Shown here: piece after piece, positions 2,002 through 37,814 of the stretch | Numbering within the stretch: position 1 is the first letter of the stretch | Layout: each line of letters begins with the position of its first letter | DNA from: an uncultured Gammaproteobacteria bacterium | Lineage (GTDB): Bacteria > Patescibacteriota > Microgenomatia > UBA10105 > UBA927 | DNA length: 64,000 nucleotides | Direction of reading: 5' to 3' | Assembly: GCA_964445435.1 (NCBI GenBank) | Contig: CAYUKU010000003.1 | Span: forward strand, 841 to 64,840 | Position numbers and translations under genes: made by a program | The notes under the pieces: model-generated | Databases searched by the model: none | Seen by the model: only the letters and a program-made list of their open reading frames with translations | Told to the model about the DNA's origin: nothing

Positions 2002-2469
2002 CTAAGTAAGTCCAATTTCCAACGACACATCGATCGGCTCAAACCCCTGACTCTTATAAAACGCGATTGCACGAACGTTCTTCACATACGCATTCACATA
2101 CAGGGTTTGGTATCCCAAATCGGAAGCTCGTCTTTTCAGCTCTGAGATGAGTTTAGCTCCTATCCCCTGGGAGCGATATCTCGAAGAAACACCCATATCG
2201 TTGATTTCAAGAGTTTTCACTGTGCGATATGTGATATTCTTCTTGCTACCAACAATATACCCTACCGGGATGCCGTTATCCACCGCCAGAAAGCATAAAT
2301 ATTCAGGACGTGACGTAACTTCCTTATAATATTTTTCTCCTGCAGGTGTTTGCGCAAATTTTGGGTTGAGAAATGCATCATATGGAAGATTTGAGACTAT
2401 CACCTCATGGTTCAGTTGACGTATAACTTTCCAATCTTCCGGCACAGCGGCTCGAAATTCGATAGCCAT
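2002..2469 (-). CDS. GNAT family N-acetyltransferase
   Basis: 155 aa with an acetyl-CoA binding-like segment (RSQGIGAKLISELKRRASDLGY) and typical GNAT size. Confidence 0.7.
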   Translation of the reverse strand: MAIEFRAAVPEDWKVIRQLNHEVIVSNLPYDAFLNPKFAQTPAGEKYYKEVTSRPEYLCFLAVDNGIPVGYIVGSKKNITYRTVKTLEINDMGVSSRYRSQGIGAKLISELKRRASDLGYQTLYVNAYVKNVRAIAFYKSQGFEPIDVSLEIGLT

Positions 2470-3934: not shown

Positions 3935-5716
3935 TTACTTAACTAACCAACGTCTAAACACATTATACTCCATAGTGTTTACTACGTCATGTTTGGTCGC
4001 CCATCCGCGGCGCGCAACCGATACGCCATAGCGCATCAGGTCCATATGTTCAACCGCGTGCGCGTCAGTATCGATCGTGAACCGGAGTCCGCGTCTCACT
4101 GCATCATACACAAGCGTGTCTGGCAGGTCGAGCCGATCAGGATAAGCATTTATCTCAAGGGCGATATCGTGCTTCTTGGCCACCGCAAAAATTTCCGGCC
4201 AATTGGCGTCCACCCCTTCGCGGCTCCCCAGAAGTCTTCCCGTGGGATGTCCGAAAATACGTACCTTCGGGTGGTAACCAAGCGCTTTGGCGATCCGCTC
4301 TGTGACGGTTTTCCTTTCCTGGGTGAAACTCGAATGAATCGACACAACAACAGCGTCGACAAACTCAAATGCACTATCTGGAAGAGCCAGTTGACCGGTG
4401 GGCATGATATCCACCTCACACATCACAAACACGTGAACCGGTTTTTTGTGCTTGGCATTCCATGTGTCTTCCTCTTTCCGGTAAAACTCCAAACGTTTCT
4501 TCATAATACCGGTAATATCCGCTTCCGAATGATTAGACAACCGCGGATTATGGTCGCTGATGCCGATGTACTCATACCCCAGGCTTGCGGCTTTATCCAT
4601 ATGCGCCGAAAGCGGATTGGCGCCAAGATCATGGGATGATTTGAGATCATACGACGTATGCATATGAAGGTCGCCCTTGATATCCGAAAGTTCGAGAAGT
4701 TTAGGAAGTTTGCCTCTCTTGGCTGCTTCTATTTCCCCTTTGTCTTCCCGAATTTCGGGTGGAATGTACGGGAGGCCTACAATCTTATAGAATTCTTCCT
4801 CTGACGCCACTTCTCGCACTTTACCCGTTTTCGTATTTTTTATTCCGTGTTCATTGAGGGAAAGTCCTTTGGTGAGGGCCAGTTCACGCAGCTTGATGTT
4901 ATGATTCTTGCTTCCCGTAAAATATTGAAGCATCGCGCCGAAAGCCTGCGGCTTTTGCACCCGCATATCGACCTGCCGCCCGCTATGAAGCAGTAACGTC
5001 GCCCCGCTCGGGCCTTTCTCAACAAGTTTCTGATGAGGATACGTGAGGAAATGGTCTATTGCTTCCTTGGGTTTCGTAGTCGCAACCGCAATATCAACGT
5101 CACCTATTGTGGATACCTGACGTCTGAGACTTCCTAACACGTCAATGCGCGAGACTCCGGAAACCCGCTTCATGTGCGCGATAACTTCTTGCGCTATCGC
5201 ATCCGCGATGGGAAGCGGCATGCGAACTTCTTTTATTTGTCCTGCCCTGTATACGGCAATGGCTCCCAAAATATCCTCTTCGGATTTCTCCCCGAAACTT
5301 TCAATTTCAGCAATTTTATGCGCCTTTGCCATTTTTTCCAGGTCAGAAACGACAGTTTTGGGGTCTTTGAGCTTCAGGTGGGTGACGAGTTTGTAGGCTT
5401 TTTTGGGCCCGATCCCCGGGACAAGAAGAAGCGGGAACATGGACGCAGGAACTTTTTTCATGACGTCCTTGAAATGGCCTACCGTTCCCTTTCGGAACAA
5501 CTCATCGAGGTAATGAGCGATGCCTTGACCGACCCCGGGAATTTCGTTGAGCTTTCCGTCATCCCAGAGATCCTTCACGTCGCTCGTCAGATGTTCGATA
5601 CTATCGGCAGCGCGATCGTACGCGATTATCTTAAACCGATTCTCGCCTAACACCTGGTAAGCAGCGGAGACTTGCCGAAGGAGGGCAGCAAGCTCGAGAT
5701 TCGTCGCGGCTCTCAT
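3935..5716 (-). CDS. polX: Family X DNA polymerase (Pol beta-like core plus C-terminal PHP phosphoesterase domain)
   Basis: 593 aa. The N-terminal part has helix-hairpin-helix and Pol beta-like motifs ([23 protein letters not shown]). The C-terminal part has PHP-type histidine motifs (DLHMHTSYD..., ISDHNP). Confidence 0.8.
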
Positions 5717-5743
5717 ACGGTCTATCGTATCAAAACGCGCGCA

Positions 5744-8700
5744 TTATGTCGAAGATTTCCCGTTCTTCCTTGCTTTTTTATCGTTCATTTTCTCGGCTGA
5801 CCTCCGTATCATCTCCATCAGATCGGAGGGTTGCACACCTAAAATATCATTTACGTATCCTTTAAATGATGCCCTGCTTCTGCCGTCTCCACGCGAAAGA
5901 AAGGGCAGATCCACATAGATCCGGGGCAGGACATAATCTCCCCCTTGCCTCTGAACCGTGAGAATTGTGTCCATCGTTAACTCCTCCGGGTCCACACCTG
6001 CTTCGACAAGGGACTCGGCAATCCGATTTGCCACAATTCTCGGCTGTGCATTCTCAATGTACATCCGATACGAACGATCATAGGATGGATCTATTTTTCG
6101 TGCTGCCGCCGATAAAACCAAAGTGGGCGAAGTTCCGGACGCTCTGCACGCGGTTTCAAACGCGCTTTGAGGGATGCCAAAAACGATATCAAAACGCGGT
6201 TGAAGAATCGTTGGCACTGCGCCTGCCTCGTGAATCCGGTGAAGTTTCAGACGACTGACTGCAAGTTCAACAAGGCGTACCTCAGTTGCCCCTGCATACC
6301 CGTTCGTTTTGTAACGTGAACGAATTTGGGCGTAGATGTCATACGTCATCGTGCGTCCCCTCTGACTCGGCGAAAGAAGTGTCGTACCAAATCGAATCGC
6401 GGACGCCACTCTTTGGATTTTTTGCACGAATTCATCGATTTGGATCAATTCTTCTCTATTCCGGACATATACCACATCAGATTCTATCCCGGCGCCTCCG
6501 TGTACATACTCCACCATTTCTGCATTAAGAGCCGTTACCATGGCGCTAATTCGTTTCTCAATCCCCTGACGCACAAACCCAAGAAGCTCACTCCCCCGCG
6601 TTGAAAGTTCGAGGTTCGGAGGTTTGAGATAGGTAAGCTGTTGGGGAGTTTTCTTAAGAACGTGGATCACCCGGATAAGATCGAGAAAATACGCAAGCGT
6701 GATTCGCTCTTCGCCGTCGTTATCCTCAAGAAAAGTATTGGCAAGTGACGTAACGGTGTATTCCATACTTTTTATCGCAAAATCCTCCAAAAACCGCGCC
6801 GCTAGCATACGCTGGAGCTCTTCCCGCGACAGGGATTCTTCATTCCCCGATTCGGATTCGGATATAACATTCTCAATATAGGCCTGCAATGATCTGGGAA
6901 CGAGTACAGTATCAAGCGGCTTCCTTTTTCCGATGGCCACCTCCTCGTTATACATAAGCCGCGCAAGTTCCTGAATCTGCTGGGCTTCCAGACGGAAATA
7001 CGGCAAAAGCCACCACCGAAAACCGGCGATTTGCTCAAAGGATTTTTTGTTCGGCTCAAGCTTAATTTTCCCGTCCCGACGGGCGAACTCTGCTGCGAGA
7101 ATCGGCTCTCCTCCCGAAGCCAGATATTCCCGATACTTGGGAATCACGAGTGCTGCGATTTGACTGAGCTCTTTGATGTTCACGAGCCTCCGGTTTCGTT
7201 TTTCCCTAACCGCGGTGATTATGAAATGATACGGCGTTCTGTATGACCGCTCCGATCCCTTCGTAGGTCCGAAAGAGAAGGTAATATTTTGATAATCGGC
7301 AACATGGCGTTCGTATTGTTTGCGGGATCGGAATGCTACCCTTGCGTCGCCCATCGACACTCCCATAATCTGAAGAGCAGACTTATATCCCTTGACATCA
7401 GCGTCCTCAAACGGCCAAATCTCAATCACCAGGCACGGATTGCCGTTTTCATTCCGACGCATCACCCGTCCCATATCCTGAAACGGCCGGTATTCAGAAC
7501 GTTTCCACGGTTTGAGAATAATCACTTCAAACGTCGGAATATCCAGCCCCTCGCCGATCATGTCAACGCCGATGATCGTTGTCGTCTTGCCTTCCAGGGC
7601 GCGCTGGACGATATCTTCGTTTTTTCGACTCGATTGCTCCGAGTGCATAAACTCAACCTGGTCTGCTATAGCCTTCCCGTACTCTCGCTCCAGAATAAGC
7701 TTAATTTGCTCCAGAAGAACCCGGCCTTCCTCTATGGAATCAGCCTCGATGAACGTGGGCCGGATGGTAACCGTTTCTCCATCAACAAAAACGGATTCCT
7801 CCAGGAAATTTTCGATTTTTGCACGGATCGAGAGTTCAAGCTCAACTTCAAGCGCGTTTGGCTTGTCTTCCTTCTTCGATTTGCCCACCTCTGCCAGTTT
7901 CTCTCTGAGTTTCAGTACAGTTCTTTTCACCGCGATGGGTGGCGTCACACCTGTCTCAATGGTGTACGCGAGCGGAACTGAAAGAATTTCCTTAAATCCC
8001 AAGTCCGTAAGCGTATGGCCGAGCCCCGGCGTTGCGGTGAAGGCAATCTGCGTCGCTTTGGCAAGGGCCGTGTGACGGGAAAGAATACTTCTGTCCCAAA
8101 GGAGATTGTGTCCCTCGTCCCAAATCACAAGGGGAATTTCTCGCTTCGACTCTTTAAGCATGCGAAACAGCCGACGCGCAGACTGAAACGTCGTCATGAT
8201 AACCCGTCCGCTTACGTTCTTCTCCTGTCCGTCAAACCGTGAAATCTCTCCCTCGTCAAACACCCTACCAAACGCACGCAACGTCTGGTTCATGAGTATC
8301 GTTCGTGAGGTGATGAAAAGAACATTTTGTGCCCCCAGGTCAAGTGCTTCCTTCATAAGACGCGCCTCAACGTCCGTTTTCCCTGACCCTGTGGGAGAAG
8401 CCACCCATCCGCGGAATGCCTCGCTCTTGCTCTTCCCGTTATGCGCATATAACTCCATCCCGACCGCAGTCTGAATGGCAGGTTGATGGCTCCAACGATA
8501 TTGGCCGGCATCAATTCTGTCCATATACTCTTTGCCGTACGTTAGAAACAACTTCTTCCCCAACCTCCCTACGAACGTTTCCGGTTCGTGATTCTGGATT
8601 CGCTCGAACGTTTCGTGGATGCGATGCGGGTCCATGAGGTAATCCGGAGCCTGCAGATTGAATGCGACGGAACCATCAGGCCTTCTATCCACAATTGGCT

Positions 8701-9121
8701 TGACATCAGAAGCTGCCGCGCCCGTGAATGATCCGTCAGTCCTAAGAGAGGTTATACCGACAAGCTCTCGGATGTTTTTCCCCTCATCAAATCCGGACAA
8801 CCATTCAAACAGCGACGAGAGGGGAATATCTTGACCCGTTTTAGGATCCTTATATCCCTGAACGTAATTGACTCTGCCGACGCGATATATTTCCACAGGA
8901 AACACGCCATACCGCTCTCCTTCAATAAATGCTGTCGGAGTAGTCTGCATGCCCTGCGCCCCCTCATCCAGAGGAACGGCAATATCTATATGCGCCGTCA
9001 GCGGATCAAGAGAATTTAACTGGGAAAGCGTGAGGTTGCCAAAAGAGTAACGGGTGTGCCACACCGTTTCCGGCTGGTCCACCACCATGACCTCTTCTTC
9101 GAGCTCCGTTGAAGCGACCAT
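5744..9121 (-). CDS. Large SF2 (DEAD/DEAH, ResIII-like) helicase with N- and C-terminal extensions of unknown function
   Basis: 1125 aa. Visible helicase motifs are Walker A (ASPTGSGKT), motif II (VIWDEGHN), a TAT-like motif (FTATPG) and motif VI (QDMGRVMRR). About 230 aa at the N-terminus and about 470 aa at the C-terminus have no recognisable motifs. The gene ends 27 bp upstream of polX on the same strand. Confidence 0.75.
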   Translation of the reverse strand: MVASTELEEEVMVVDQPETVWHTRYSFGNLTLSQLNSLDPLTAHIDIAVPLDEGAQGMQTTPTAFIEGERYGVFPVEIYRVGRVNYVQGYKDPKTGQDIPLSSLFEWLSGFDEGKNIRELVGITSLRTDGSFTGAAASDVKPIVDRRPDGSVAFNLQAPDYLMDPHRIHETFERIQNHEPETFVGRLGKKLFLTYGKEYMDRIDAGQYRWSHQPAIQTAVGMELYAHNGKSKSEAFRGWVASPTGSGKTDVEARLMKEALDLGAQNVLFITSRTILMNQTLRAFGRVFDEGEISRFDGQEKNVSGRVIMTTFQSARRLFRMLKESKREIPLVIWDEGHNLLWDRSILSRHTALAKATQIAFTATPGLGHTLTDLGFKEILSVPLAYTIETGVTPPIAVKRTVLKLREKLAEVGKSKKEDKPNALEVELELSIRAKIENFLEESVFVDGETVTIRPTFIEADSIEEGRVLLEQIKLILEREYGKAIADQVEFMHSEQSSRKNEDIVQRALEGKTTTIIGVDMIGEGLDIPTFEVIILKPWKRSEYRPFQDMGRVMRRNENGNPCLVIEIWPFEDADVKGYKSALQIMGVSMGDARVAFRSRKQYERHVADYQNITFSFGPTKGSERSYRTPYHFIITAVREKRNRRLVNIKELSQIAALVIPKYREYLASGGEPILAAEFARRDGKIKLEPNKKSFEQIAGFRWWLLPYFRLEAQQIQELARLMYNEEVAIGKRKPLDTVLVPRSLQAYIENVISESESGNEESLSREELQRMLAARFLEDFAIKSMEYTVTSLANTFLEDNDGEERITLAYFLDLIRVIHVLKKTPQQLTYLKPPNLELSTRGSELLGFVRQGIEKRISAMVTALNAEMVEYVHGGAGIESDVVYVRNREELIQIDEFVQKIQRVASAIRFGTTLLSPSQRGRTMTYDIYAQIRSRYKTNGYAGATEVRLVELAVSRLKLHRIHEAGAVPTILQPRFDIVFGIPQSAFETACRASGTSPTLVLSAAARKIDPSYDRSYRMYIENAQPRIVANRIAESLVEAGVDPEELTMDTILTVQRQGGDYVLPRIYVDLPFLSRGDGRSRASFKGYVNDILGVQPSDLMEMIRRSAEKMNDKKARKNGKSST

Positions 9122-9556
9122 AATAAACCTATAGTATACATCGGCGAAACCTCTGAATCAACCGTTCGGGGCATCAGAAAACGAAAGTTTTCATTTCCTT
9201 GTAACAAGTTCTGCCTGCTTCGCGCTTCAGGAAGCTATTTCTCTCACAAGGTCATACGGAATCGGCTTAGCCAGATCAAAGCTGATTGTCTCTTTTCCCC
9301 GCACGAAAGGGGCGATTTTTCTTCGAAACGTAGCGGGACCCTTGGGAGTAGGATAAAGGGAAACATGATGGGCAAAGCCGGCAAAATAGAGAACGTTTCT
9401 GTGAGTACGGAACGCGGGAATGTTGTAGCTGATACGCTGCGTAGCGATAGAATGACGCTATATATCGTTATGCACAGGTTTCCCCGACATCGTCAGCATC
9501 CCTAGGAAAGCTCGCAATAGACTCTTTCACAGAATGATCCGTCAGTAAATACGAAG

Positions 9557-10030
9557 TCATGATTCTCCTATGCGATGAATCCAACTGAAAACTTTTTTTA
9601 ACAAACCAACTTGTCCACTTTCGGGAGATGTATGCGTGAAGAAAAAAAACTGTGGGGATGACCTGTCTAACTGTTCAGGCACTGAAGCTTCGAATTGTAT
9701 CAGCGCGTTCCTTGCTTGGCTTTCTCTGTGTTGTTCTCCCGCTTTTATGGCAGAGGCTCCGACTATCTTCATGAGAACTGTGCGGGTGGCGTCCCGCAAT
9801 TGCTGCTGAAGCACTTCCCGCTGCTTTGCCACCGCCATCTCATCGGCGTTATGTAGATCAACAAGTTGAAGCGTAGCATTTATTTCCTCTTCGGTCGCTC
9901 CAAATTCTAATCTAACACGCTTAAATTCGGCTTTTTGTTCGGCAGATATTCTGTGCGACCGTAGTTGGGTCGCAAGAGGGATGTCCGACGATAGTGTAGG
10001 AAATCCGGGTTCTATTATTTCAACATGCAT
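9557..10030 (-). CDS. Hypothetical protein
   Basis: 157-aa ORF with protein-like composition and no recognised motif. Confidence 0.4.
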   Translation of the reverse strand: MHVEIIEPGFPTLSSDIPLATQLRSHRISAEQKAEFKRVRLEFGATEEEINATLQLVDLHNADEMAVAKQREVLQQQLRDATRTVLMKIVGASAIKAGEQHRESQARNALIQFEASVPEQLDRSSPQFFFFTHTSPESGQVGLLKKVFSWIHRIGES

Positions 10031-10156
10031 AATCTGTGGATAAAATGCGCTTATAAATAAATTTATTCAGCACCTGCAACTACGATCTTGGGTAGACATA
10101 CACACCCATTGCACCCTTGGGACCGCTCTGCGCCACCCCCACAAGTCGGAATTGGG

Positions 10157-10227
10157 AGCGGGATAAGGGAATCGAACCCTCTTCTCATCCTTGGGAAGGA
10201 TGCATACTACCGGTGTACTAATCCCGC
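10157..10227 (-). tRNA. tRNA-Gly (anticodon CCC)
   Basis: Minus-strand cloverleaf folded by hand: 7-bp acceptor GCGGGAT/ATCCCGC, D-arm, anticodon stem CATCC/GGATG with loop TTCCCAA (U33, CCC, A37), T-arm GAGGG-TTCGATT-CCCTT. CCA is not encoded. Confidence 0.8.
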
Positions 10228-10280
10228 CTATTCACGGAACAGAAACTACGTTTCTTTCCCGACGATTCTTCCTACCAGAG

Positions 10281-17509: not shown

Positions 17510-18676
17510 CTATTCTTTCAATATTTTTTGGTATAGCACTGCAATTTTCTTCGCCCCGATGGTTATATCGTGAACCGACACTGCCCTTCGACGGGCTTTG
17601 AGCATATATTTCTTTCGCAACTGCGGACTGGTGATGAAAGATTTAATTGCCCGAGTCAGTTCCCCGATGTTTCCTGGTGATACAATAATCCCGGCGTCGC
17701 CAATGTTTTCCGGAATGCCGCCTGTATCTGTCGTCACTATCGGTAATCCGGCTGCCTGCGCCTCAAGCAGCGCGGTACAGTACTGCTCTTGCCATGTAAG
17801 AGTAGGTTTGCTGGGAGCCACGAAAATATCACCCTTCTCGTACATGTGTGGCATTTCTTCGTACGAGGCCGAGGCGAATTGAATCCGATTTTCTAAATTC
17901 CACCGGCGAATCATGTCCTTCATTACTTTCTTTTGACTACCCTCTCCAACGAAAAGAAATGTAAGTGTGTATTCTTCAAGCTCTTCATCAGTAACGAGAA
18001 GTCTCGCCGCCTCCAGAATATCCAAGACTCCCTTGTATTCCTCCAGCCGTCCGACGAAAAGCACGGTGAGCGTTTTTATTTTTGATGAACGGCGCATCTG
18101 CGTTGTCCTGGCCGGCTGGAACCGCTTCGTGTCCACGAAATGCGGAATGACGGTAATTTTCTCCTCGTCCGCGCCTTCAACGAGTAGTGCCTCTTTCGTT
18201 TTCTGCGTTAAGGCAATGATGTGATCAAGCTCCTCCCTAGCCCGCCTTTTAAATCGTTTCCTGCCCCAGATTCCTTCATTGTTATGGGGAATATTTTCTA
18301 GAACAGTCGCTATCACCTTTTTCACATATCCCTTCTTTTTCGCATCCAGACACTGTTGCGTATAACGGAAATACGTTTCCGCCGTGTGGACGAGATCGAA
18401 TCCCCTCAAAGCTTCCTCCAGGCCATGGAGGTAGTGCGCATCCACGAACACTCTATTGAGAACGGGCATCTTATAGGGAAAGTCGGGCGAGTCCATGGGG
18501 CTGGGAAGTTTCACGACCGGGAATGCGAATGATTCATGGTATGGTTTCTCCGATCCGAACGCCGTGATGTCGAAGTCCTTCACCAGAGGTTCGAAGAATT
18601 GCATTTCGTAGCGGTTCAGAAATTTCCCGCGGACAATCGCGACTTTTGGTCTACTCATACCGCTTGATGATTTCAT
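17510..18676 (-). CDS. Family 4 glycosyltransferase (GT4)
   Basis: C-terminal GT4 signature (EAQAAGLPIVTTDTGGIPENIGDAGIIVSPGNIGEL). Confidence 0.8.
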   Translation of the reverse strand: MKSSSGMSRPKVAIVRGKFLNRYEMQFFEPLVKDFDITAFGSEKPYHESFAFPVVKLPSPMDSPDFPYKMPVLNRVFVDAHYLHGLEEALRGFDLVHTAETYFRYTQQCLDAKKKGYVKKVIATVLENIPHNNEGIWGRKRFKRRAREELDHIIALTQKTKEALLVEGADEEKITVIPHFVDTKRFQPARTTQMRRSSKIKTLTVLFVGRLEEYKGVLDILEAARLLVTDEELEEYTLTFLFVGEGSQKKVMKDMIRRWNLENRIQFASASYEEMPHMYEKGDIFVAPSKPTLTWQEQYCTALLEAQAAGLPIVTTDTGGIPENIGDAGIIVSPGNIGELTRAIKSFITSPQLRKKYMLKARRRAVSVHDITIGAKKIAVLYQKILKE

Positions 18677-19736
18677 AGACTTTTTCGGCGAACTTGCGCC
18701 AGGAATAGCGTTTCGATCGAGCTAAGCCTTTCTTGATATACTCTCGCCGTGCTTTTTCATTGTTCGCCATTGTCGCCAGTGCTTCAGTCAACCCTTGTAC
18801 ATCTTGAGGATCGACGAGTATCCCGCTATCGCCTACTACTTCCGGAAATGCACCCGTCGTGCTACCGATCACGGGACATCCACTCGCCATTGCTTCAACG
18901 GCGGGAAGGCAAAACCCCTCATAAAACGAGGGTGAAACAAACGCAACCGCTCCACGATAATACGCTGCCAGGTCGGAAACAGGCACGTGCCCAGGCTGTT
19001 TTACTCTTTCTCCTAGATTGAGTTCTTTTATCAAGATATCTATTTGTGGATCTTTCCAATAATCTCCTCCAACAAGATATAAGTCGAATATTTTCTTCTG
19101 CGTCTTAATGAACTCAGAAAAGCTTCGAAGAATAAGGGGAACATTTTTGCCAGGTTTCAAGGCACCGACAAAGAGGAAATAAGGATATTTTCCTTTATAC
19201 TCAAAACCTTTACCCGCAAAGGTATCATTGGTACCAGGATGTGCAACGGTAATTTTTTCCGTTGAAAGTCCATATGATGTCGAAACTTTCTTTTTTACCG
19301 AATCCGATACACAAACAATATTTGAGGCTTTGTGAACTGCCCTCTCAGTTAGTCTAGCCAATTTTGCACTTGTACCTGGATAATTAAAGGGATTAAAAAG
19401 GAAATTATTATCATGAAGAATAACAATACTATGTGGAGAACCGAAGGGAATTGCCTGTGAAGGACCGATAAATAAGTCTACTTTATGCAACAATAATTCG
19501 AGTGGCAATCTTATCTCGAACCAGCCTTTTTTCGGCTTAAGCACTCTATTATGCATGCGCTTACCTAGATTATCCAGTACGCTCAAGTCAATTTTTTCAA
19601 AGCTATATAACTCGTAGGAATTGTTCCCATCAAGCCTACTTAATTCCTTTAAAAGATTTAAAGTTACCCAATAAACGCCCAATTCTAAGCGTTTATCGTT
19701 TATTCCTAAAGCTCCCGCGTCAACTCCGATTTTCAT
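18651..19736 (-). CDS. Family 4 glycosyltransferase (GT4); base composition shifts inside the gene
   Basis: EGFCLPAVEAMASGCPVIGSTTGAFPEVVGDSGILVDP. The 5' two-thirds (about 19020-19736) is visibly AT-rich and the 3' third is GC-normal. Confidence 0.8.
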   Translation of the reverse strand: MKIGVDAGALGINDKRLELGVYWVTLNLLKELSRLDGNNSYELYSFEKIDLSVLDNLGKRMHNRVLKPKKGWFEIRLPLELLLHKVDLFIGPSQAIPFGSPHSIVILHDNNFLFNPFNYPGTSAKLARLTERAVHKASNIVCVSDSVKKKVSTSYGLSTEKITVAHPGTNDTFAGKGFEYKGKYPYFLFVGALKPGKNVPLILRSFSEFIKTQKKIFDLYLVGGDYWKDPQIDILIKELNLGERVKQPGHVPVSDLAAYYRGAVAFVSPSFYEGFCLPAVEAMASGCPVIGSTTGAFPEVVGDSGILVDPQDVQGLTEALATMANNEKARREYIKKGLARSKRYSWRKFAEKVYEIIKRYE

Positions 19737-20616
19737 AAAGATGTTTCAAGTATTTAAGTATTCCGTCAAATACTCCTCGGAACGGAGTCACTAGAGAATT
19801 TATACTTACTTCTCTACCGAATCCGAACATACATCTTAGAATCCAATTCACTCTGGTGATGACAAAAAATGGAAAAAGGAATAAGTTTCTATTCTTTAGA
19901 AAAAAGTAGGTTTCGTTACTAAAGAAGTGGAAATACCAAAAAAGTCTATTGTCTACTTTCCGCGCTCCTCCGTGCGGTTCTCTTAGGTGATAAACCAAGG
20001 CTTTTGGTTCGAAAATAATTTTGTATCCCTTTGCTTTAGCGCGAAGGGATAAGTCTGATTCTTCTCTCATTGCATTGCCGGTAAATTTTTCGTCGAATCC
20101 GCCAATCTCCTCAAATAACGTACGGCGCCAACTAGCGTTGCACCCAATAACCGTATCGATTTCCTGTTTAACAGTGGACGAATAGCCATCTGAAAAAATC
20201 GCCAATTTAGAAATTCTTCCAACTTTATCATTCGTATGTTGAATATTTTGTCCATATGCTATTGATCGCCCGCAGACTGCTGCAACGTTATCATCGGCAT
20301 AAGATAACTCGTGGTTCTGAACTAGGTTGGGCATGGCTACGACGTCGTCGTCTAAAAAAAGCAGATATTTTCCAGTGGCGACATTTGCGCCGACATTTTT
20401 CGCATGCGACGTGCTTGCCTCAGAAAGATATATATATTTAAGTTTTAGATCTTTTTGCTTTGCAATTGTGGCTATAATTTGTTTGTTGTTAACTTCTTGC
20501 TCTACTACGACTATCTCCCTAATAAACTCTTTTTCTGTTACTAAAGAGTTAAGCAATCGAACTAAACTTTTTCTTCTCCTATATGTGGGAACTACAATAG
20601 AAAAATTAGCCCTCAT
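19720..20616 (-). CDS. Family 2 glycosyltransferase (GT2)
   Basis: FSIVVPTYRRRKSLVRLLNSL...YLLFLDDDVV carries the GT2 DxD region. The DNA is AT-rich. Confidence 0.75.
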   Translation of the reverse strand: MRANFSIVVPTYRRRKSLVRLLNSLVTEKEFIREIVVVEQEVNNKQIIATIAKQKDLKLKYIYLSEASTSHAKNVGANVATGKYLLFLDDDVVAMPNLVQNHELSYADDNVAAVCGRSIAYGQNIQHTNDKVGRISKLAIFSDGYSSTVKQEIDTVIGCNASWRRTLFEEIGGFDEKFTGNAMREESDLSLRAKAKGYKIIFEPKALVYHLREPHGGARKVDNRLFWYFHFFSNETYFFLKNRNLFLFPFFVITRVNWILRCMFGFGREVSINSLVTPFRGVFDGILKYLKHLYENRS

Positions 20617-21766
20617 ATAAATTAAATAATCGCATGAATCCGATACGTTTTTTGTTAATATTGAATCTTGAAATTATGAAGCGCCTAGCCCTATCACCAA
20701 TTTCTCTTCTTTTCGCGGAATCATTCAGAATCATTTCCACCGCCTTTAGATATTCTCTTAGAGATCCACTATGAATAAGTATTCCGTTCTTACCATCTTC
20801 AATAAGTTCCCTGTTCCCTCCAATATCCGACGCAACCACGGGTAGTCCCATTGATAATGACTCTAGAAGGGCTATAGACAATCCCTCTTGATGGTTCGAA
20901 GGGAAAATAACGATATCGCTTATTCCCAAAAAGTCTCGCACTTTGTCCGTGTATCCAACCACTGTAACTCTTTCTTCCAGGTTTACACTTTTGATTTTAC
21001 CTCTCAAATAGTTTATTAATGGTCCACTCCCTACTATTAAAAAATGCAAACTTAAATCCTTTCGTGTCTGTATTAATTTAGTTGCTACTTGGAAAAATGT
21101 ATGAATTCCTTTTTCTTTTGTGATACTACCAATAAAAGTAATTATGATGTCATTTGCTTCAAAATTCATAGTTTTTCTAAGATTGTTTTTCTTCTCAGGT
21201 TTGAAAGGTTCGAAATGCTCAACATCTATTCCTATGGGAATATATAAGATTTTATCTGGCGATACTCCGCCGTTGATTAAATCTTTTTTAGTTCCCTCGG
21301 ATACTGCAAGTATCTTTCTTGAAAATCTGCTTACAATCGAATACAGAAGCTTTATAACTTTTGACCTAGGAGTTATGAAAAGTGGCCCATGTTCTATCCA
21401 TATGACTTTATAACCGGCTAATTTAAGTATCGGGGTCAGTAGTATTTTTTCCGTCATCGACTGAAGGCATATTAAATTGATTCGTTTACCTCCCATTAAT
21501 TTCCTTAAATTTATGTAATAGAGGAATAGATATAGTGGAAATGTAAATAGTAACTTCACTAATTGACTGTGTGTGCCTATTTCCATACTCAGTTGGGGCA
21601 CAGTTATGGTTTTCACTCCTAGGTCTGAGGCTTCCTTTGAAAATTTTTCAAAATTAGTAAGTAGATAGAATCTATATTTGGCGCTGCGAAGTTTATCGAA
21701 CAACAAATAGTTATATTTTTCTGCGCCACTAACACTAGAGCAAATCCTAATTACTAAAATATTCAT
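20606..21766 (-). CDS. Family 4 glycosyltransferase (GT4)
   Basis: EGLSIALLESLSMGLPVVASDIGGNRELIEDGKNGILIHSGS. Confidence 0.8.
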   Translation of the reverse strand: MNILVIRICSSVSGAEKYNYLLFDKLRSAKYRFYLLTNFEKFSKEASDLGVKTITVPQLSMEIGTHSQLVKLLFTFPLYLFLYYINLRKLMGGKRINLICLQSMTEKILLTPILKLAGYKVIWIEHGPLFITPRSKVIKLLYSIVSRFSRKILAVSEGTKKDLINGGVSPDKILYIPIGIDVEHFEPFKPEKKNNLRKTMNFEANDIIITFIGSITKEKGIHTFFQVATKLIQTRKDLSLHFLIVGSGPLINYLRGKIKSVNLEERVTVVGYTDKVRDFLGISDIVIFPSNHQEGLSIALLESLSMGLPVVASDIGGNRELIEDGKNGILIHSGSLREYLKAVEMILNDSAKRREIGDRARRFIISRFNINKKRIGFMRLFNLYEG

Positions 21767-22509
21767 AATTTGCGAGCCACAAGAGTAAATGCTTCACCTC
21801 TAAAAAAAGGTGAGAACCTTGAAAAGCCTTTCACAAGAAGAACATCGAACGCTATTATAAAGTGCCATAGAAATCGAAATTCCTGCCACTTTTGGAGTCT
21901 CAGTTTAATCATAATTCGGTTAAATAGATGAAAAGCCTTAGAAGTGAAGAATGTTATATCCTCTATTACAAAACCTTTACTTCTTAAACTCTCAATTATT
22001 TCTAGTGGCTTAATACCTTCTTCTATCGGACTTTCCCCCTGGCCCCTTTTTAAGGCCTCATAAGTAGGCTCTCTCAGTAGAAGATAGCCTCCGCGGGACA
22101 GGATAGCGCACCAGTTACTAAGAGCATGTTCTTTGCTGATTGTGTGGTGCAGTGCTCCTAAGGATATAATACAATTCGCTGACCCCTTAGGAAATCTGAT
22201 TGTTTCAATATCACCAACTTTAAAAGTACCTGATGGCATGTTTTTTTTTGCAATCTGGAGCATATTTTTCGAAATATCCACACCTATATAGCGAATATTG
22301 TTTAGTAAGTCGTTACTCAGTATCCTTTTGATTGAAATCGCTGGTCCACACCCCATATCAATAACAACATCCGATTTGCGAATATATTTTGCTTTTAGCA
22401 AAAACATTTGTTCTGGAACCTCCCAAATAAAATCATTCTCTCTTCTAAAAGAATATTTTTTTGCCGTTTTATCGTGATGAACTCGCTCAAGTTCAAGAAA
22501 GTTGTTCAT
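21763..22509 (-). CDS. Class I SAM-dependent methyltransferase
   Basis: VIDMGCGPAISIKRIL (motif I) and CIISLGALHH (motif II). Confidence 0.7.
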   Translation of the reverse strand: MNNFLELERVHHDKTAKKYSFRRENDFIWEVPEQMFLLKAKYIRKSDVVIDMGCGPAISIKRILSNDLLNNIRYIGVDISKNMLQIAKKNMPSGTFKVGDIETIRFPKGSANCIISLGALHHTISKEHALSNWCAILSRGGYLLLREPTYEALKRGQGESPIEEGIKPLEIIESLRSKGFVIEDITFFTSKAFHLFNRIMIKLRLQKWQEFRFLWHFIIAFDVLLVKGFSRFSPFFRGEAFTLVARKL

Positions 22510-23900
22510 ACATCGAAGATTAATTTGTATTCTTTCGTACCATGATATCTTCTTTGAAGGAAAGTAACATATATAGCGGAAACGATAAATTCCGTTATCA
22601 CGGTTGTCACACTTGCCCCCAGAAACCCGTAATTCGGAATAACAAACATATTCAGAAGAATATTCAAAAAAAGTGAAATAGATAGTACCTTAATTATTGT
22701 TTTGATTTCGCCGAAAGTTAGTAACACATGGTAATAAACGTTATTTAATAAAAAGAAAGGAACTGCTAACAAGAGTATTTTAAGCGAACTTACGCTTAGA
22801 GAAAACTCGGCTCCTCCCAGAAGACCTATAAGGGGTTCCGCGAAAATTAAACCTCCAGTGACGATAAATATCGATAAAACAACTAATGCGAAATATGTCT
22901 TACGCAACAGGTCACTATATCTATCAAAATTTGATTTTAGATAATATTTGGAAAGAAGTGGAAAGACGCTTGCCATATAAAATCCCCAAAAAGTAAGAAG
23001 ATTTTCGAGAACCTTGTAAGACAAACCATAAATTCCCACTTCTGATGTAGATTTAAATGCGGCAAGCAACAATGTGTCAATTTTAAAATAGAGAAGCGAA
23101 ATGAAGGTTGTAAGTCCTATGGGAAAACTATTCATCAAAATATTTCTAATAACCCGTTTGTCTATTGACAGATTGAAAAATAGGACATCTCTGATTGGTA
23201 TAGCGGAAACAAATAACCCGACCAAATTTCCAAGAAATACTGCAAAAACCAACCCAACAATATTAAACTTCAAGTAGACGAACAAAAAGGTGAAACCTAT
23301 AGTAATAAATTTTACTACTAACTCTATCCCTGCGACTAAATCGAGTCTGACTCTCGATTGCAATATCGAAGTATTGTAAGAAGCCAGATTACCGATTCCG
23401 ACTCCAAGTATTCCGACAAGAATTGCTTTTTTTACGGTTAATGAATACGGGGAGAAAAATAATCCAATTAAAGATAGAAGCACCGAAACGAAAACTAGAA
23501 ACAATTTTGTATTTATATACGAGGCCAGTACTATCCTTGCTACACTAAGTTTTCCTGCCAAATTTCTTACTAATGCGGTATTAAAGCCTAAATCAGAAAA
23601 AGCAATGAAAAAGGATATATATGCAAACACCAAAGAATAGTCACCATAACCACTAGTGCCCAAGTATCTTGTTAGTATTATCACGCTCGCTAAACTAATT
23701 AACAAAGATATCGTCCTAGAAATAAATTGAGCAATGGTGTTGACAAGGATTTTTCTATCTTCTAGCTCCTCCTCAACAGCTGGTTTGTTGTAGTTCGTCA
23801 TAAAACGACTAACAGATTTTAGCCAAGGAAATAATCCTAAACCCTTGACATAGCCTAATATTATACTTAATCTGAGATAAAGAGGCAGGTCTAAATACAT
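22506..23900 (-). CDS. wzx: Polysaccharide biosynthesis protein / Wzx-type oligosaccharide flippase (MOP superfamily)
   Basis: 464 aa with about 12-14 TM helices. The Leu/Ile/Phe-rich composition is typical of Wzx flippases, and the gene terminates the glycosyltransferase operon. Confidence 0.6.
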   Translation of the reverse strand: MYLDLPLYLRLSIILGYVKGLGLFPWLKSVSRFMTNYNKPAVEEELEDRKILVNTIAQFISRTISLLISLASVIILTRYLGTSGYGDYSLVFAYISFFIAFSDLGFNTALVRNLAGKLSVARIVLASYINTKLFLVFVSVLLSLIGLFFSPYSLTVKKAILVGILGVGIGNLASYNTSILQSRVRLDLVAGIELVVKFITIGFTFLFVYLKFNIVGLVFAVFLGNLVGLFVSAIPIRDVLFFNLSIDKRVIRNILMNSFPIGLTTFISLLYFKIDTLLLAAFKSTSEVGIYGLSYKVLENLLTFWGFYMASVFPLLSKYYLKSNFDRYSDLLRKTYFALVVLSIFIVTGGLIFAEPLIGLLGGAEFSLSVSSLKILLLAVPFFLLNNVYYHVLLTFGEIKTIIKVLSISLFLNILLNMFVIPNYGFLGASVTTVITEFIVSAIYVTFLQRRYHGTKEYKLIFDV

Positions 23901-25844
23901 GTGCTTAAAAGTCTAAGATTATTGTTCTTTTGCTCAACATGGTTATTACTTGCTCGAATTTTTCCAGTTCGAGCTGAAACCATCTTCTTAGATACCTTTT
24001 CTGGAGGCCATAACAGCTCTCTATGGACTATAGAAGAGAACAGATCTATTCCGATACCCTCCCCATTTGGAATTGGCGATACAAACACAGGGAACTTCTA
24101 CGTTCTGGTATCTACAACACAACCATTGCCTGCTAATAATATTGTATCCTTCGATATGAAAATCCATAGCGACCCTTCAGCGATGTGGTTTTCATGCAAC
24201 GATGCAAACAATTCCGCTAACGAACGGAGAGTTGCTCTACGAAATAATGGAACGTTTACCTTTGAAGTATTCTTAAACGGAGGCGGGTTAGGCAGTAATT
24301 TTATGAATTGGGATAATTCACCTGGAATCCATCATTTTGAATTTGACTGTTTTGGTAGCTTATTAATTCTTAAAGAAGATGATGTTACCCTTGGAAGCTG
24401 GGATCATACATCTACTTTTGTCCCAGATAAAGTCCGTTTTTTTTATAAGGACGGAGATACGGAATTCGCTAATTACCAATTATGCGATACCAATGGCTGC
24501 GATCCGCTGCCAAGCTCGACGCCCTCACCCACTCCCTCTCCATCCCCCACACCCACGCCAACACCAACGCCTACACCAACTCCGATTCCGGTGACAAAAG
24601 TGGTAGTTGTCCCGGGCATACTGTCTTCCATAAGCGACGCTCTCATTAACTGTGAACCAGGCGATGGATCTGAAACGTGGAATCTCATCGAATACGCGAA
24701 GACAACATACGAGCCTCTCTATCAGGGAATGCAAAATGCGGGATTTTCTGTGTACCCATTCTATTACGATTGGAGAAGAACGCCAAACCAGAACGCCGCT
24801 AATCTCGACGGCTTCATTGATAGTATCGTGTCTCCGGACGAAAAAATCTATGTACTAGGACATAGCTTGGGCGGATTGGTAGCGCGAGCCTATTTGGAGC
24901 AGGTGCAGCAGGACTCGCGCATCGATAGTCTGTTAACGGTGGGATCTCCCCACGCAGGCGCACTCGATTCATATGTAGTATGGGAAGGAGCACAATTGCC
25001 GGAGTGGCTGCAAGACAATATTCCGGCGCGTTTTCTTCATTTTTACATCTCCGCCTGGTGCCCACTTGTAAAGGGAAGACAATCTCCTATTGAGGGTGTT
25101 CGTAACTATATGCCCGTTTTTACGAATCTTCTGCCCGTCTTTGACTATCTCAGAGATCAAAAAACCGATACGCTAAAGCCCACCCTGGGACTCATCCACC
25201 AGAACACTTGGCTACCAAATAATTCCTTTTATTTCCCCTTCTTCGGAACAAGGGTGGGAACACTGCGAGGGACCAATCAAAAAACGTTGCGTGAATATGT
25301 AGTTAAACCACGCAGTCCTCTTGAGGCAAAACAAGGACTTTGGGATGACGGAAAGCCAATCTCGTACGTATGGTCCCAAGAGGGAGATAATAGGGTGCTG
25401 TTTACGAGTTCTTTCATCCCCGGAGGCGACAACAGTCGGGTTTTGCCGCTTGAACATAATGCGCTCGTATCATCTTCAGGTGGCATTACCCAAATTCTCG
25501 ATTTTTTTGGCATGGGGACTGTACTCCCGAATTTACAGGCGCTTACCTCTATGGAGCCAACCTCTGCTCTCATAGTTCTCTCAAATGAGGCAACACTCTT
25601 CATGGAGACACCCGACGGAAAAAAACAGTCGGATCAAAACGGCATGACCACAATTCTTAACCCGCAGGCAGGCACCTACAAGCTCACAATATCACCAGAC
25701 AAACCATTCGCCCGCTTCGTGATCTTGCAGCTGCTTCCAAATGGAAAAACACTATGGAAAGAATATCACGCTACTGGCAAAAGCATAGAAAAAAGAACAC
25801 TCAATTTTTCTCAAAAGTATCCATCCGAAAACATTTTGCAATAA
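23901..25844 (+). CDS. Secreted LCAT/PGAP1-like alpha/beta-hydrolase (lipase/acyltransferase) with an N-terminal domain and a Pro-Thr linker
   Basis: Signal peptide (MLKSLRLLFFCSTWLLLARIFPVRA), an N-terminal domain of about 190 aa, a PT linker (PSSTPSPTPSPSPTPTPTPTPTPTP), a YDWRR motif characteristic of the LCAT family, and the nucleophile elbow GHSLGG. Confidence 0.6.
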   Translation: MLKSLRLLFFCSTWLLLARIFPVRAETIFLDTFSGGHNSSLWTIEENRSIPIPSPFGIGDTNTGNFYVLVSTTQPLPANNIVSFDMKIHSDPSAMWFSCNDANNSANERRVALRNNGTFTFEVFLNGGGLGSNFMNWDNSPGIHHFEFDCFGSLLILKEDDVTLGSWDHTSTFVPDKVRFFYKDGDTEFANYQLCDTNGCDPLPSSTPSPTPSPSPTPTPTPTPTPTPIPVTKVVVVPGILSSISDALINCEPGDGSETWNLIEYAKTTYEPLYQGMQNAGFSVYPFYYDWRRTPNQNAANLDGFIDSIVSPDEKIYVLGHSLGGLVARAYLEQVQQDSRIDSLLTVGSPHAGALDSYVVWEGAQLPEWLQDNIPARFLHFYISAWCPLVKGRQSPIEGVRNYMPVFTNLLPVFDYLRDQKTDTLKPTLGLIHQNTWLPNNSFYFPFFGTRVGTLRGTNQKTLREYVVKPRSPLEAKQGLWDDGKPISYVWSQEGDNRVLFTSSFIPGGDNSRVLPLEHNALVSSSGGITQILDFFGMGTVLPNLQALTSMEPTSALIVLSNEATLFMETPDGKKQSDQNGMTTILNPQAGTYKLTISPDKPFARFVILQLLPNGKTLWKEYHATGKSIEKRTLNFSQKYPSENILQ

Positions 25845-30255: not shown

Positions 30256-31347
30256 TCAAGATAGAGGCCCAATTGCAATGGCGCTCTGTTTAAGTTTTTC
30301 CCGTTGGAGCGACCACAAAATCCCAAATGCTATCGCAAGAGACAGAAGAGAGCTCCCCCCGTACGATACAAACGGAAGCGTAATGCCGGTTATGGGGATA
30401 ATGCCCATGTTCATGGCCGCGTTCACGAAAATCTGAACCACGAGCATCGCAAAAAGGCCAATCGAGTAAATAAACAGTCCCGGATCGCGCGCTTTACTGT
30501 CCACCAGGGGAGCAATAATACGGGTAAGCAGTGCGCCATAGAGAAATAAAAGCAGAATCCCTCCCACAAACCCCAATTCCTCGATAAGCGACGCGAAGAT
30601 GAAATCCGTATGATGCTCCGGCAGAAACCGCAGATGACTCTGGGTCCCCCTGCCAAGCCCGCGCCCGAAGAATTGGCCGCTTCCGACGGCGATCATGGCC
30701 TGGAGCGCATTATATCCGGCCCCCTTGGGGTCCAAGGCAGGATTAAGAAACGTGAGAATCCGATCTTTCTGATACGGCAGAAGTGCGTGCCACAACGCGG
30801 GGAAAGAGATGGCTCCCAGCCCGGCAACCGCAACGACAATGGCAACCGAGAGTCCGCCCGCAAGCATCATCGAAACCCAAAACGATCCGTAAATAATACT
30901 GCTTCCTAAATCGGGTTGCTTAAATACCAGCAAAAACGGGATGAGAAATAGAAGGACATGAAGCGGAATGTTTCTTAGATTCCTCGGACTGTATCTGGTC
31001 ATGAAATACGCAAACGCGAGGATGAAAAACGGCTTCGATAACTCGGAGGGTTGCAGTTGTACCCCTCCAATCATGATCCATCGTGTCGCTCCCCGGATGT
31101 TCGGGCCCAGATACGACAGAAGAAGAAATATATTCCCTATCACATATCCGTATGGGGCAAACCACCAAAACACCGCGTAATCCACCCGCGAGAAAAGATA
31201 CAGAAGAACCATCGCAAGCGCGAGAAACAATAACTGCTGCCAGAACGCTCCGACGCTGAGAGTAAGGAGTAAGAATAGTCCAAACGCGCAAAGGCACAAC
31301 AGAAGAAGAAGCGTTATCCAGTCGAAATGGTAAGCTCGTCTCCCCAT
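30256..31347 (-). CDS. rodA: SEDS-family peptidoglycan glycosyltransferase (RodA/FtsW-like)
   Basis: 363 aa with 10 TM helices and the SEDS C-terminal region (NMGIIPITGITLPFVSYGGSSLL). Confidence 0.75.
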   Translation of the reverse strand: MGRRAYHFDWITLLLLLCLCAFGLFLLLTLSVGAFWQQLLFLALAMVLLYLFSRVDYAVFWWFAPYGYVIGNIFLLLSYLGPNIRGATRWIMIGGVQLQPSELSKPFFILAFAYFMTRYSPRNLRNIPLHVLLFLIPFLLVFKQPDLGSSIIYGSFWVSMMLAGGLSVAIVVAVAGLGAISFPALWHALLPYQKDRILTFLNPALDPKGAGYNALQAMIAVGSGQFFGRGLGRGTQSHLRFLPEHHTDFIFASLIEELGFVGGILLLFLYGALLTRIIAPLVDSKARDPGLFIYSIGLFAMLVVQIFVNAAMNMGIIPITGITLPFVSYGGSSLLSLAIAFGILWSLQREKLKQSAIAIGPLS

Positions 31348-34199: not shown

Positions 34200-34440
34200 T
34201 TAAGCAGCCATCAAAAATCCGCTCTCCTTATACAATACCGTATATAAGGACGAGCGGCTACTCGTGGTACCACCTTATTCTCCATGAACCGCGCTTGCTC
34301 TGGTTCATGGCTCGATTCCTGCTGTAACGGGCTTACCCGGAAGGGTCTACTTGCCTTTCGGTGTTCTTCCTCCAGCTCGTCCGGTGATGTCGGACTTGGA
34401 CGCTGTTAAGTGAAGTATAACAAGATTGAAACGTTATCTC
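34200..34440 (-). promoter_or_regulatory. T-box riboswitch leader (Ile-specific) controlling ileS
   Basis: T-box sequence AATAAGGTGGTACCACGAG (minus strand, plus coordinates 34261-34279). An antiterminator can be drawn in which ACGAG pairs with CUCGU, AAGG pairs with CCUU, and a UGGUACC bulge is left free to pair the tRNA NCCA end. The 5' strand of the terminator is shared with this antiterminator. A stem III (CCATGAACC...GGTTCATGG) lies upstream, and a candidate specifier AUCA lies in the upstream region. Confidence 0.75.
34213..34257 (-). terminator. Intrinsic terminator of the ileS T-box leader
   Basis: The minus strand reads CCGCTCGTCCTTATATACGGTATTGTATAAGGAGAGCGG followed by ATTTTT, 74 nt upstream of the ileS ATG. 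Confidence 0.75.
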
Positions 34441-34597
34441 AACTCCTCTGTCTTAAAAACGCAGCGTCACCGCCTCCATATTTGTTTACGAAGGTAGGGG
34501 CTACCTTCTTCTGGTAGTAACGGATACCGTTTTTCTGAGATAGTGTATATCCTTCTCCGTTAAGACCGATGTGATGCTTTGAAGAATCGTATGCCAT
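34439..34597 (-). CDS. Small hypothetical protein (52 aa)
   Basis: Hand translation gives MAYDSSKHHIGLNGEGYTLSQKNGIRYYQKKVAPTFVNKYGGGDAAFLRQRS. Its ATG lies 1 nt after the stop of the upstream start-less ORF. It is below the ORF-track cutoff. Confidence 0.3.
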   Translation of the reverse strand: MAYDSSKHHIGLNGEGYTLSQKNGIRYYQKKVAPTFVNKYGGGDAAFLRQRS

Positions 34598-34598
34598 A

Positions 34599-34893
34599 TT
34601 AGACTTCAGTTAGTACGAACGCTCCGGTTCCGGAGTTAATAGTTACGTGGTATCTTTTCGTTCCATCTGAGGAATACATGTAGAACCCATCTGAGCCAAA
34701 CGAGCCTTCGAGATTCCTGATATTTACCTTTCGAGAACCCGTTCCCGTGTGCGCATGGAGACCGATCTTCTGAATTTCCGTAAACAGAGAAGGAGCAAGA
34801 TGTTGCAGCTCGATCTGACCAGGGCCGATTTGATCTCCTGTAACGGGAGCTTTGGCTGATGACTTAAAAGTTGAGTATCCTATATTCCCCCCC
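34599..34893 (-). pseudogene. Start-less open frame (about 97 codons) bordered by a G7 homopolymer; possible gene remnant
   Basis: Frame ...GGNIGYSTFKSSAKAPVTGDQIGPGQIELQHLAPSLFTEIQKIGLHAHTGTGSRKVNIRNLEGSFGSDGFYMYSSDGTKRYHVTINSGTGAFVLTEV*. There is no ATG/GTG/TTG before the internal Met, and adding one G to the tract does not create a long upstream frame. Confidence 0.25.
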
Positions 34894-34973
34894 TAAACAG
34901 CCTCAATTGAAGATGAGGGAGGATAGAAAGTGAATTAGATTATCGGGGATGTGGTATGATCCCTATCAAGTCT

Positions 34974-35132
34974 ATGAATAATAGCCCGTTGTGGGATTTG
35001 GCTATTTTGACCGTTATTATTGGATATATAGTATATAGATTCTTTTTTACGGATAACTTGCCTAATAGCTGTCGTCCTAACGATCAAGCATGTCTTGATT
35101 ATGTAGCTGAACAGGTAGATTATAGGAGATAA
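34974..35132 (+). CDS. Small single-TM membrane peptide (52 aa)
   Basis: MNNSPLWDLAILTVIIGYIVYRFFFTDNLPNSCRPNDQACLDYVAEQVDYRR. Its stop overlaps the AGGAG ribosome-binding site of the next plus-strand ORF. Confidence 0.3.
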   Translation: MNNSPLWDLAILTVIIGYIVYRFFFTDNLPNSCRPNDQACLDYVAEQVDYRR

Positions 35133-35134
35133 TT

Positions 35135-36331: not shown

Positions 36332-36339
36332 AGTTTTCG

Positions 36340-37740: not shown

Positions 37741-37770
37741 AGGTTTGGCGTATAATAACGCTCTAAACTA

Positions 37771-37791: not shown

Positions 37792-37814
37792 CCTAGTATC
37801 AACCTACGTCTCTC

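Follow-up and report, generated by a model that had tools for sequence, protein, structure and literature searches.

The window studied here, a stretch of 64,000 nucleotides (nt) from contig CAYUKU010000003.1 of an uncultured bacterium, carries a gene for an 1125-residue helicase of superfamily 2 (SF2) directly before a gene for PolX, a DNA polymerase with a PHP domain. As judged from the gene order in relatives, the pairing of these two genes is local gene order (synteny) in a rarely sampled bacterial lineage and not a conserved repair module. The helicase itself would be best explained as an autonomous, clade-restricted chromosomal enzyme, an SF2 (DExH, ResIII-type) ATP-dependent translocase or helicase that acts most likely on DNA and has two novel accessory regions; we give this explanation about an even chance of being correct. 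By the profile searches described below, the two regions flanking the motor define new, unnamed domain families, while the motor itself is of a known kind.

The helicase gene and its motor core

The helicase and PolX genes lie on the minus strand, and 27 nt separate the helicase stop codon (5744-5746) from the PolX ATG at 5716. The helicase is conserved along its whole length in four lineages, at 48-75% identity and with invariant residues throughout; thus, the open reading frame (ORF) of 1125 codons represents a genuine gene rather than one produced by chance. In addition, the last 386 codons show purifying selection, with a ratio of nonsynonymous to synonymous divergence (omega) of 0.13 between the window and a closely related strain (L011). 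An earlier sequence-only reading of this DNA had described an SF2 helicase of this size 27 nt before a same-strand PolX-PHP gene, and the ORFs, motifs and domains that it named are all present. The motifs read from the translation are ASPTGSGKT (residues 241-249), VIWDEGHN (332-339), FTATPG (361-366) and QDMGRVMRR (548-556).

The assignment to SF2 is borne out by motifs I, Ia, II (DExH), III, IV, V and VI, which follow in order on two RecA-like lobes and are invariant across the four homologues. A helical insert (residues 400-446) sits between the lobes. In Pfam, ResIII (residues 233-365, 66 bits) and Helicase_C (480-556, 28 bits) both score over their cut-offs, DEAD and SWI2_SNF2 are also listed, and all matches fall within the core. 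The best profile match is phrog_16, a phage family described as 'DNA helicase' (E 6e-31), which aligns with residues 214-567 and hence with the core only. Sequence searches of PDB returned XPB/Rad25 on RecA1 and UvrB and SauUSI on RecA2. Foldseek, run on a low-confidence model of the full helicase, returned RadD, XPB, SauUSI and the HsdR of EcoR124I, again over the core only. Similarly, tblastn matches in phages and plasmids are restricted to residues ~200-576, at 24-26% identity. The core with its conserved extension (residues ~205-600) is the sole part of the protein that resembles known proteins, and some 200 residues at the N-terminus and 525-555 at the C-terminus are left unexplained.

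Membership in known families was judged by scores against NCBIfam model cut-offs, and Pfam, PADLOC-DB v2 and PHROGs were also scanned. Curated families score the helicase far under cut-off, at 15-33 bits versus 220-750. As the sequence-only reading had supposed, the protein is not an orthologue of RecQ, UvrB or Hef. For RecQ, no NCBIfam model matches at E<=0.01, and Pfam finds neither RQC nor HRDC; UvrB models give 19-28 bits versus 743-750 and align with RecA2 only (residues 480-561); Hef or XPF-type models give 23-28 bits versus 610, also on RecA2 only, with no ERCC4 in Pfam. RadD was rejected at 24-29 bits versus 720 (residues 240-341 only), and PriA, RecG and Mfd at less than 20 bits each, on part of the core only. 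Type I HsdR reaches 29-33 bits versus 284.55 (TIGR00348), and no nuclease family is found in residues 1-230. The surroundings of the helicase consist of tRNA-Gly, ORF157, a DUF1801 remnant and PolX, with no hsdM or hsdS nearby. Among PADLOC defence systems, there are partial motor matches only, at 12-25 bits (type IV mREase, PbeA, type I REase, HamB and Cas3).

Linkage between the helicase and PolX

PolX is an intact member of its family: it scores 439.7 bits against the 426 required by the equivalog NF006375 over residues 10-591, has the Pfam domains HHH_8 (HhH), palm, thumb and PHP, and retains the GDVD and HxH motifs. Gene contexts are readable for five relatives. In L001, where the helicase is 75% identical to that of the window, the order is DUF1801, helicase, PolX, LemA, M48, GNAT, ClpB, MurT and GatD. 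The contigs L011 and L101, from a strain ~98% identical to the window, have the same gene order as the window. In L003 (57% identity; a 746-kb contig), the order is PEPC, LysM, tRNA-Gly, three orphan genes on the opposite strand, helicase, DUF1697, PolX, and LemA onward. In L006 (48% identity; 41% GC), MFS and RidA precede the helicase, which is followed by the end of a convergent non-PolX gene.

Direct adjacency of helicase and PolX is therefore seen in the window, L001 and L011, is broken by DUF1697 in L003, and is absent from L006. Where the pair is adjacent, it is surrounded by one collinear block (PEPC-LysM-tRNA-Gly...PolX-LemA-M48-GNAT-ClpB-MurT-GatD). The linkage to PolX is not conserved, because adjacency occurs only in collinear regions, is interrupted once, and is absent in the sole independent context. 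In effect, neither of the marks of a conserved helicase-PolX operon, namely adjacency across divergent members and shared transcription signals, was found.

The two genes also differ in how fast they change. Compared with L003, the helicase is 56% identical in amino acid sequence, while PolX and PEPC are both 80% identical, LysM 77%, M48 91% and LemA 93%. Between the window and L011, a sharp change in divergence coincides with the helicase/PolX junction: nucleotide identity is ~98% across PolX and everything downstream, and 76-93% (mean ~86%) in the last 1.1 kb before the stop codon of the helicase.

Each gene has a promoter-like element of its own. Upstream of the helicase, the pattern TTGnnn-17-TATACT followed by ATAGG(T/A)TTAT recurs across lineages. 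The 16-mer TATACTATAGGTTTAT is invariant in all four of them despite 48-75% protein identity, the different context of L006 included. It reads TATACTATAGG(T/A)TTAT and lies between the -10 box and the ATG at 9123-9138 of the window (minus strand), 482-497 of L001, 9984-9999 of L003 and 3154-3169 of L006; it is unique within the window, with one copy per helicase locus. The string ACTATAGG inside it resembles the core of T7-type promoters, which we take to be probably a coincidence. In viral contigs, the 16-mer has 87 matches, none of them linked to a helicase relative; by a rough, uncomputed estimate, an AT-rich 16-mer would be expected to match about this often by chance.

Before PolX, an extended -10-like sequence, TGATAnnAT, lies 6-9 nt from the ATG in the window, L011, L001 and L003. 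This element persists in each arrangement, be it with the helicase 27 nt upstream, with the helicase 95 nt upstream (L001) or with DUF1697 as the preceding gene (L003). The short distances between these elements and the ATG codons suggest that the helicase and PolX transcripts may be near-leaderless. No terminator-like site was found between the two genes.

The flanking regions and a stand-alone homologue

That the helicase has large flanks without recognizable features, as first described, agrees with the searches, which found no family match; the sizes given for them are corrected to ~200 residues at the N-terminus and 525-555 at the C-terminus. With a pI of 10.2, residues 571-650 are strongly basic; the C-terminal region as a whole is basic too. 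In this region, a hypervariable linker joins a conserved sub-domain (residues ~625-756) to a module of ~370 residues (757-1125). The linker at residues 751-775 is the least conserved of the protein.

Pfam at E<=10 found no family in four sub-regions (residues 1-230, 571-1125 and halves), and nothing beyond the core in any of the four family members. PHROGs and PADLOC gave nothing useful for the N- and C-terminal regions, for the stand-alone homologue P0007 described below, or for neighbouring orphan proteins. PDB searches at E<=10 with profiles of the two regions gave noise only, and no paralogue of either module was found in the window or in the fetched relative loci. Nor was a nuclease domain, for which the sequence-only reading had suggested looking in the C-terminal region, detected in the flanks.

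The family is small. A word-indexed search of 5.8 billion clusters returned four proteins, namely the helicase itself and homologues at 75%, 57% and 48% identity, so that the family amounts to four clusters at 90% identity among ~15 billion predicted proteins. A word-index search with the N-terminal region gave no relatives and one with the core alone gave relatives at 24-25% identity; neither re-listed the family itself, so their absences carry less weight. A scan of GTDB genomes found only the L006 contig, a metagenome scan one core fragment at 30% identity, and a scan of viral contigs no relatives of the helicase.

An exhaustive hidden Markov model search of 1.84 billion representatives with a profile of residues 571-1125 found only two credible matches, the representative of the family itself and P0007, a 452-residue stand-alone homologue of the C-terminal module (E 1.2e-9). 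Two further matches were dismissed as repeat proteins. With hhalign, P0007 aligns to helicase residues ~684-1106 at 96.8% probability. What the helicase family and P0007 retain in common is chiefly Gly, Pro, Arg and hydrophobic residues, among them an Arg-rich loop (R..T..L..S.RG). The two share no conserved His, Cys or Glu, and for this reason the C-terminal module may be a binding part rather than a catalytic one. At the P0007 locus (L009 3760-7471, and L010; GC 40%), the neighbours are unannotated. They comprise a 323-residue protein 66 nt upstream, a 165-residue protein downstream with only weak Pfam matches to membrane-protein families (E 0.01-0.6), and a 217-residue protein.

An AlphaFold2 model of residues 651-1125 has a predicted local distance difference test score (pLDDT) of 72 and a predicted template modelling score of 0.53. 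It is all-alpha save for one small hairpin, and pLDDT is 80-93 for residues 651-730. The profile searches and structure prediction that had been proposed for the flanks thus yield no family, and Foldseek finds no neighbour of the C-terminal model in PDB or BFVD (best E ~0.3, 0.28 in PDB; TM <0.2). The N-terminal fold cannot be read from the full-length model, because the pLDDT of that model is only 52.

A divergent tract in the C-terminal module

The change in divergence at the helicase/PolX junction belongs to a tract within the helicase. By the Nei-Gojobori method, synonymous divergence (dS) between the window and L011 is 0.44 in the last 386 codons of the helicase, compared with 0.064 in PolX, 0.097 in LemA, 0.114 in M48 and 0.048 in GNAT; nonsynonymous divergence in the same 386 codons is 0.058. 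L101, from the same sample as L011 (ERR15113708), spans PEPC to helicase residue 744 at ~98% identity, and thus the tract is confined to window positions 5750-6850 (residues 757-1125). In amino acid sequence, residues 757-1125 are 88% identical to those of this strain, versus 98% for residues 1-756. The start of the tract coincides with the least conserved linker.

L101 and L011 overlap by exactly 29 nt just before the tract. This overlap is the signature of an assembly-graph branch at the tract boundary, and the contigs of this sample suggest co-existing alleles of the C-terminal module. Several further contigs end at or inside the helicase gene. The pattern is probably a block-wise allelic difference of the C-terminal module that arose by recombination and is under purifying selection.

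Genomic setting

The positions of the helicase, its parts and its neighbours are collected in Table 1.

Table 1. Features of the helicase locus (window positions; aa, amino acids).
Feature	Position	Strand	Description and basis
PolX-PHP DNA polymerase/3′-5′ exonuclease, coding sequence	3935..5716	minus	593 aa, intact
PolX promoter-like element	5724..5752	minus	TCGACA-17-TACGAT with upstream TG; overlaps last helicase codons
Helicase, coding sequence	5744..9121	minus	ATG start, 1125 aa, stop codon 5744-5746; ORF list and translation
Fast-evolving C-terminal helical module, aa 757-1125	5747..6853	minus	tract of divergence where strains are otherwise near-identical
Post-core extension and conserved C1 sub-domain, aa 571-756	6854..7411	minus	basic at 571-650; GFRWWLLPYFRL motif; conservation profile
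SF2 DExH motor core, aa 201-570	7412..8521	minus	Q-like WSHQPA, motifs I-VI; ResIII, Helicase_C, phrog_16, PDB and Foldseek matches
N-terminal orphan region, aa 1-200	8522..9121	minus	acidic, pI 4.8; predicted beta-rich, then helical
Helicase promoter-like element	9123..9161	minus	TTGATT-17-TATACT and invariant 16-mer TATACTATAGGTTTAT ending 1 nt before ATG; promoter scan
Truncated DUF1801 remnant	9236..9445	minus	between ORF157 and helicase promoter; aa 40-109 of the intact L001 gene; tblastn 64% over 70 aa
ORF157, orphan variable cargo	9557..10030	minus	between tRNA-Gly and helicase; two weak sub-cut-off Pfam matches
tRNA-Gly(ccc)	10153..10228	minus	upstream edge of the variable segment holding the helicase; ARAGORN and Rfam; same tRNA, same position in L003

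The cargo downstream of tRNA-Gly varies between genomes: ORF157 and the truncated DUF1801 in the window, an intact DUF1801 gene of 119 residues in L001, and three orphan genes in L003. ORF157 is absent from L001 and L003 and present in L102, and has no match in NCBIfam, PADLOC or PHROGs. The L003 trio (4476-9838, minus strand; 1247, 283 and 262 residues) lies in succession between tRNA-Gly and the helicase, is absent from the window and L001, and has no Pfam, PHROG or PADLOC match.

A mobile element integrated at the tRNA was considered and rejected: no attachment (att) repeat and no integrase was found among the neighbours, and the GC content equals that of the host locus. A search for a second copy of the 3′ end of tRNA-Gly at <=3 mismatches found none, and there are no meaningful direct repeats. 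In all four lineages, the GC content of the helicase, also at third codon positions, matches that of the host locus (50, 50, 47 and 41%). This match, together with the lack of an att repeat, an integrase or a viral relative, disfavours recent horizontal transfer.

The window is otherwise an ordinary stretch of chromosome, with a division and cell-wall cluster at 37-61 kb and IleRS at 31-34 kb. Directly upstream of the IleRS gene (31314-34139), a T-box leader-like element was found at 34243-34409 on the minus strand; it scores 43.7 bits (E 1.4e-7), under the Rfam gathering score of 93. The ~3.4 kb between this leader and ftsZ (34410-37815) have a lower GC content (0.44-0.46) and hold only short ORFs of at most 181 residues, and Rfam gives no match there at E<=0.1. 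At positions 18000-24000, GC falls to 0.35-0.44 and a series of genes lies on the minus strand. This island is probably a variable locus for surface polysaccharides; the one island gene that was scanned (22506-23900) matches a Polysacc_synt/MatE-type flippase in Pfam. Within the block that holds PolX, the GNAT acetyltransferase (2002-2469, minus strand) is another fast-evolving gene. Its orthologues in L001 and L003 share only 67% identity with it, versus 91-94% for the adjacent LemA and M48, and its omega against L011 is 0.53.

Interpretation and alternative explanations

Under the explanation given at the outset, the helicase motor would translocate on DNA in the manner of RadD, XPB and HsdR, to which it is closest. 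The C-terminal module would be a non-catalytic recognition or partner-binding part, the N-terminal region a candidate effector or interaction domain, and PolX presumably an ordinary housekeeping neighbour. Several points weigh against this explanation. DNA rather than RNA is taken as the substrate only because of a weak likeness (17-26% identity) to DNA translocases, and the description as clade-restricted and vertically inherited is drawn from five or six gene-carrying genomes. The divergent tract was seen in one strain pair and could be a chance recombination import, and the full-length AlphaFold2 model is poor, with pLDDT mostly <50 in the N-terminal region. In addition, read-through co-transcription with PolX is possible, because the gap of 27 nt holds no terminator-like site.

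Co-transcription is the premise of the gap-repair module that the sequence-only reading had favoured, in which the helicase would unwind or clear ends or gaps and PolX would trim them with its PHP 3′-5′ exonuclease and fill them. The common strand and narrow gap, the fact that the two genes are direct neighbours in the window, L001 and L011, and the nature of the nearest characterized relatives of the helicase (RadD, XPB and UvrB are repair proteins) are all consistent with such a module. Nevertheless, we consider it quite unlikely. The neighbourhoods of the five relatives show adjacency only amid synteny of the whole region, with DUF1697 in between in L003 and a convergent non-PolX gene in L006. 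In every context, PolX retains an extended -10-like element separate from that of the helicase, and the helicase diverges much faster than PolX (dS 0.44 versus 0.06), with the jump placed at their junction. Furthermore, PolX is widely found in bacteria that lack such a helicase; in B. subtilis, for instance, polX lies beside mutS2. Alternatively, the helicase might act in defence or against mobile elements as a single-gene translocase similar to HsdR or SauUSI. Its N-terminal region would then be the effector and ResIII the motor, and the helical C-terminal module would serve recognition, with its alleles traded between strains. The best curated partial matches of the core include HsdR, EcoAI R, a Dnd restriction enzyme, type IV mREase/SauUSI and PbeA, and the segment that holds the gene, downstream of tRNA-Gly, carries different cargo in each genome. 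The C-terminal 370 residues, ~86% identical in nucleotides versus ~98% elsewhere, with an assembly-graph branch exactly at their boundary, and the contigs that often break at the edges of the gene would fit this role as well. It is still an unlikely one: the searches detected no effector domain in the helicase, whether nuclease, methyltransferase or other, the N-terminal region is acidic and has no family match, and PADLOC models match only part of the core. Moreover, neither defence genes nor an integrase or att repeat are found in the neighbourhood, the GC content of the gene is ameliorated to that of its host in all lineages, four related genomes have the gene at a stable position, and viral contigs hold no relatives.

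A function on RNA, as an RNA helicase, a ribonucleoprotein remodeller or some other non-DNA activity specific to the lineage, appears highly improbable. SF2 cores are not assignable to DNA or RNA by motifs alone, and weak DEAD-box and Ski2-like matches are among the listed hits. However, the strongest signals come from DNA translocases of the ResIII, HsdR, RadD and XPB type and from the phage DNA helicase phrog_16; motif II reads DEGH, and motif III (TATP) fits the ResIII pattern, as does the region that follows it. A bolder version of the autonomous DNA translocase can also be drawn. In it, a single-polypeptide surveillance translocase would combine a ResIII motor with two undescribed domain families, and the ~370-residue C-terminal module would be an exchangeable specificity domain. 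This domain would be swapped by recombination at a conserved linker, like the target-recognition domains of restriction systems, and would also occur free-standing, as P0007, with other partners. This version is doubtful, and we regard it as rather improbable.

In practical terms, the outcome is mostly negative: the helicase-PolX 'module' reads as an artefact of synteny, and the helicase is assignable only as a putative DNA motor with unnamed adaptors. Lineages with little sampling often carry orphan accessory domains. If the flanks are real functional domains, they would add two new domain families to those of SF2 motors, one of them also free-standing, and the block-wise divergence at the C-terminus hints at a recognition function under diversification.

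Comparison with known systems

PolX is a full member of the bacterial PolX group (PRK08609 family), and nothing in it is unusual. For the helicase, likeness to known systems is confined to the motor. The match to PHROG 16 covers only positions 263-597 of the 986 in that profile and leaves both flanks of the helicase unmatched; PHROG 16 is also a phage family, whereas the helicase itself is without relatives in viral contigs. RadD (YejH) of E. coli has a similar DExH SF2 core. It provides the top Foldseek matches to the low-confidence full model (6jde, 7r7j and 8h5y; E ~1e-6 to 1e-7), and its partial NCBIfam match spans motifs I-II. Nevertheless, RadD is 17% identical to the helicase, its model NF053632 gives 24-29 bits versus 720, and with ~580 residues it lacks the 200-residue N-terminal and ~525-residue C-terminal regions. 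The parts of RadD outside its motor are matched by no helicase hit.

Archaeal XPB/Rad25 resembles the helicase in RecA1, both by sequence (6p4f/5tnu E ~1e-5; profile search E ~6e-7) and by fold. As in the helicase, its motor relies on accessory parts or partners, in this case the Bax1 nuclease. In contrast, NF045503 gives no match to the helicase, no Bax1-like neighbour is present at the locus, and the N-terminal region matches no solved chain, the damage-recognition domain of XPB included. Type I HsdR and type IV SauUSI differ from the helicase in that no PD-(D/E)xK or PLD nuclease domain is detected in the latter. Their C-terminal regions are also unrelated to it in sequence, and its C-terminal model matches no solved or viral structure. 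HsdR (TIGR00348) matches the helicase in the motor only, and SauUSI (7clg) in RecA2. What these enzymes and the helicase have in common is their layout, in which an N-terminal domain is followed by a ResIII motor and a helical C-terminal region.

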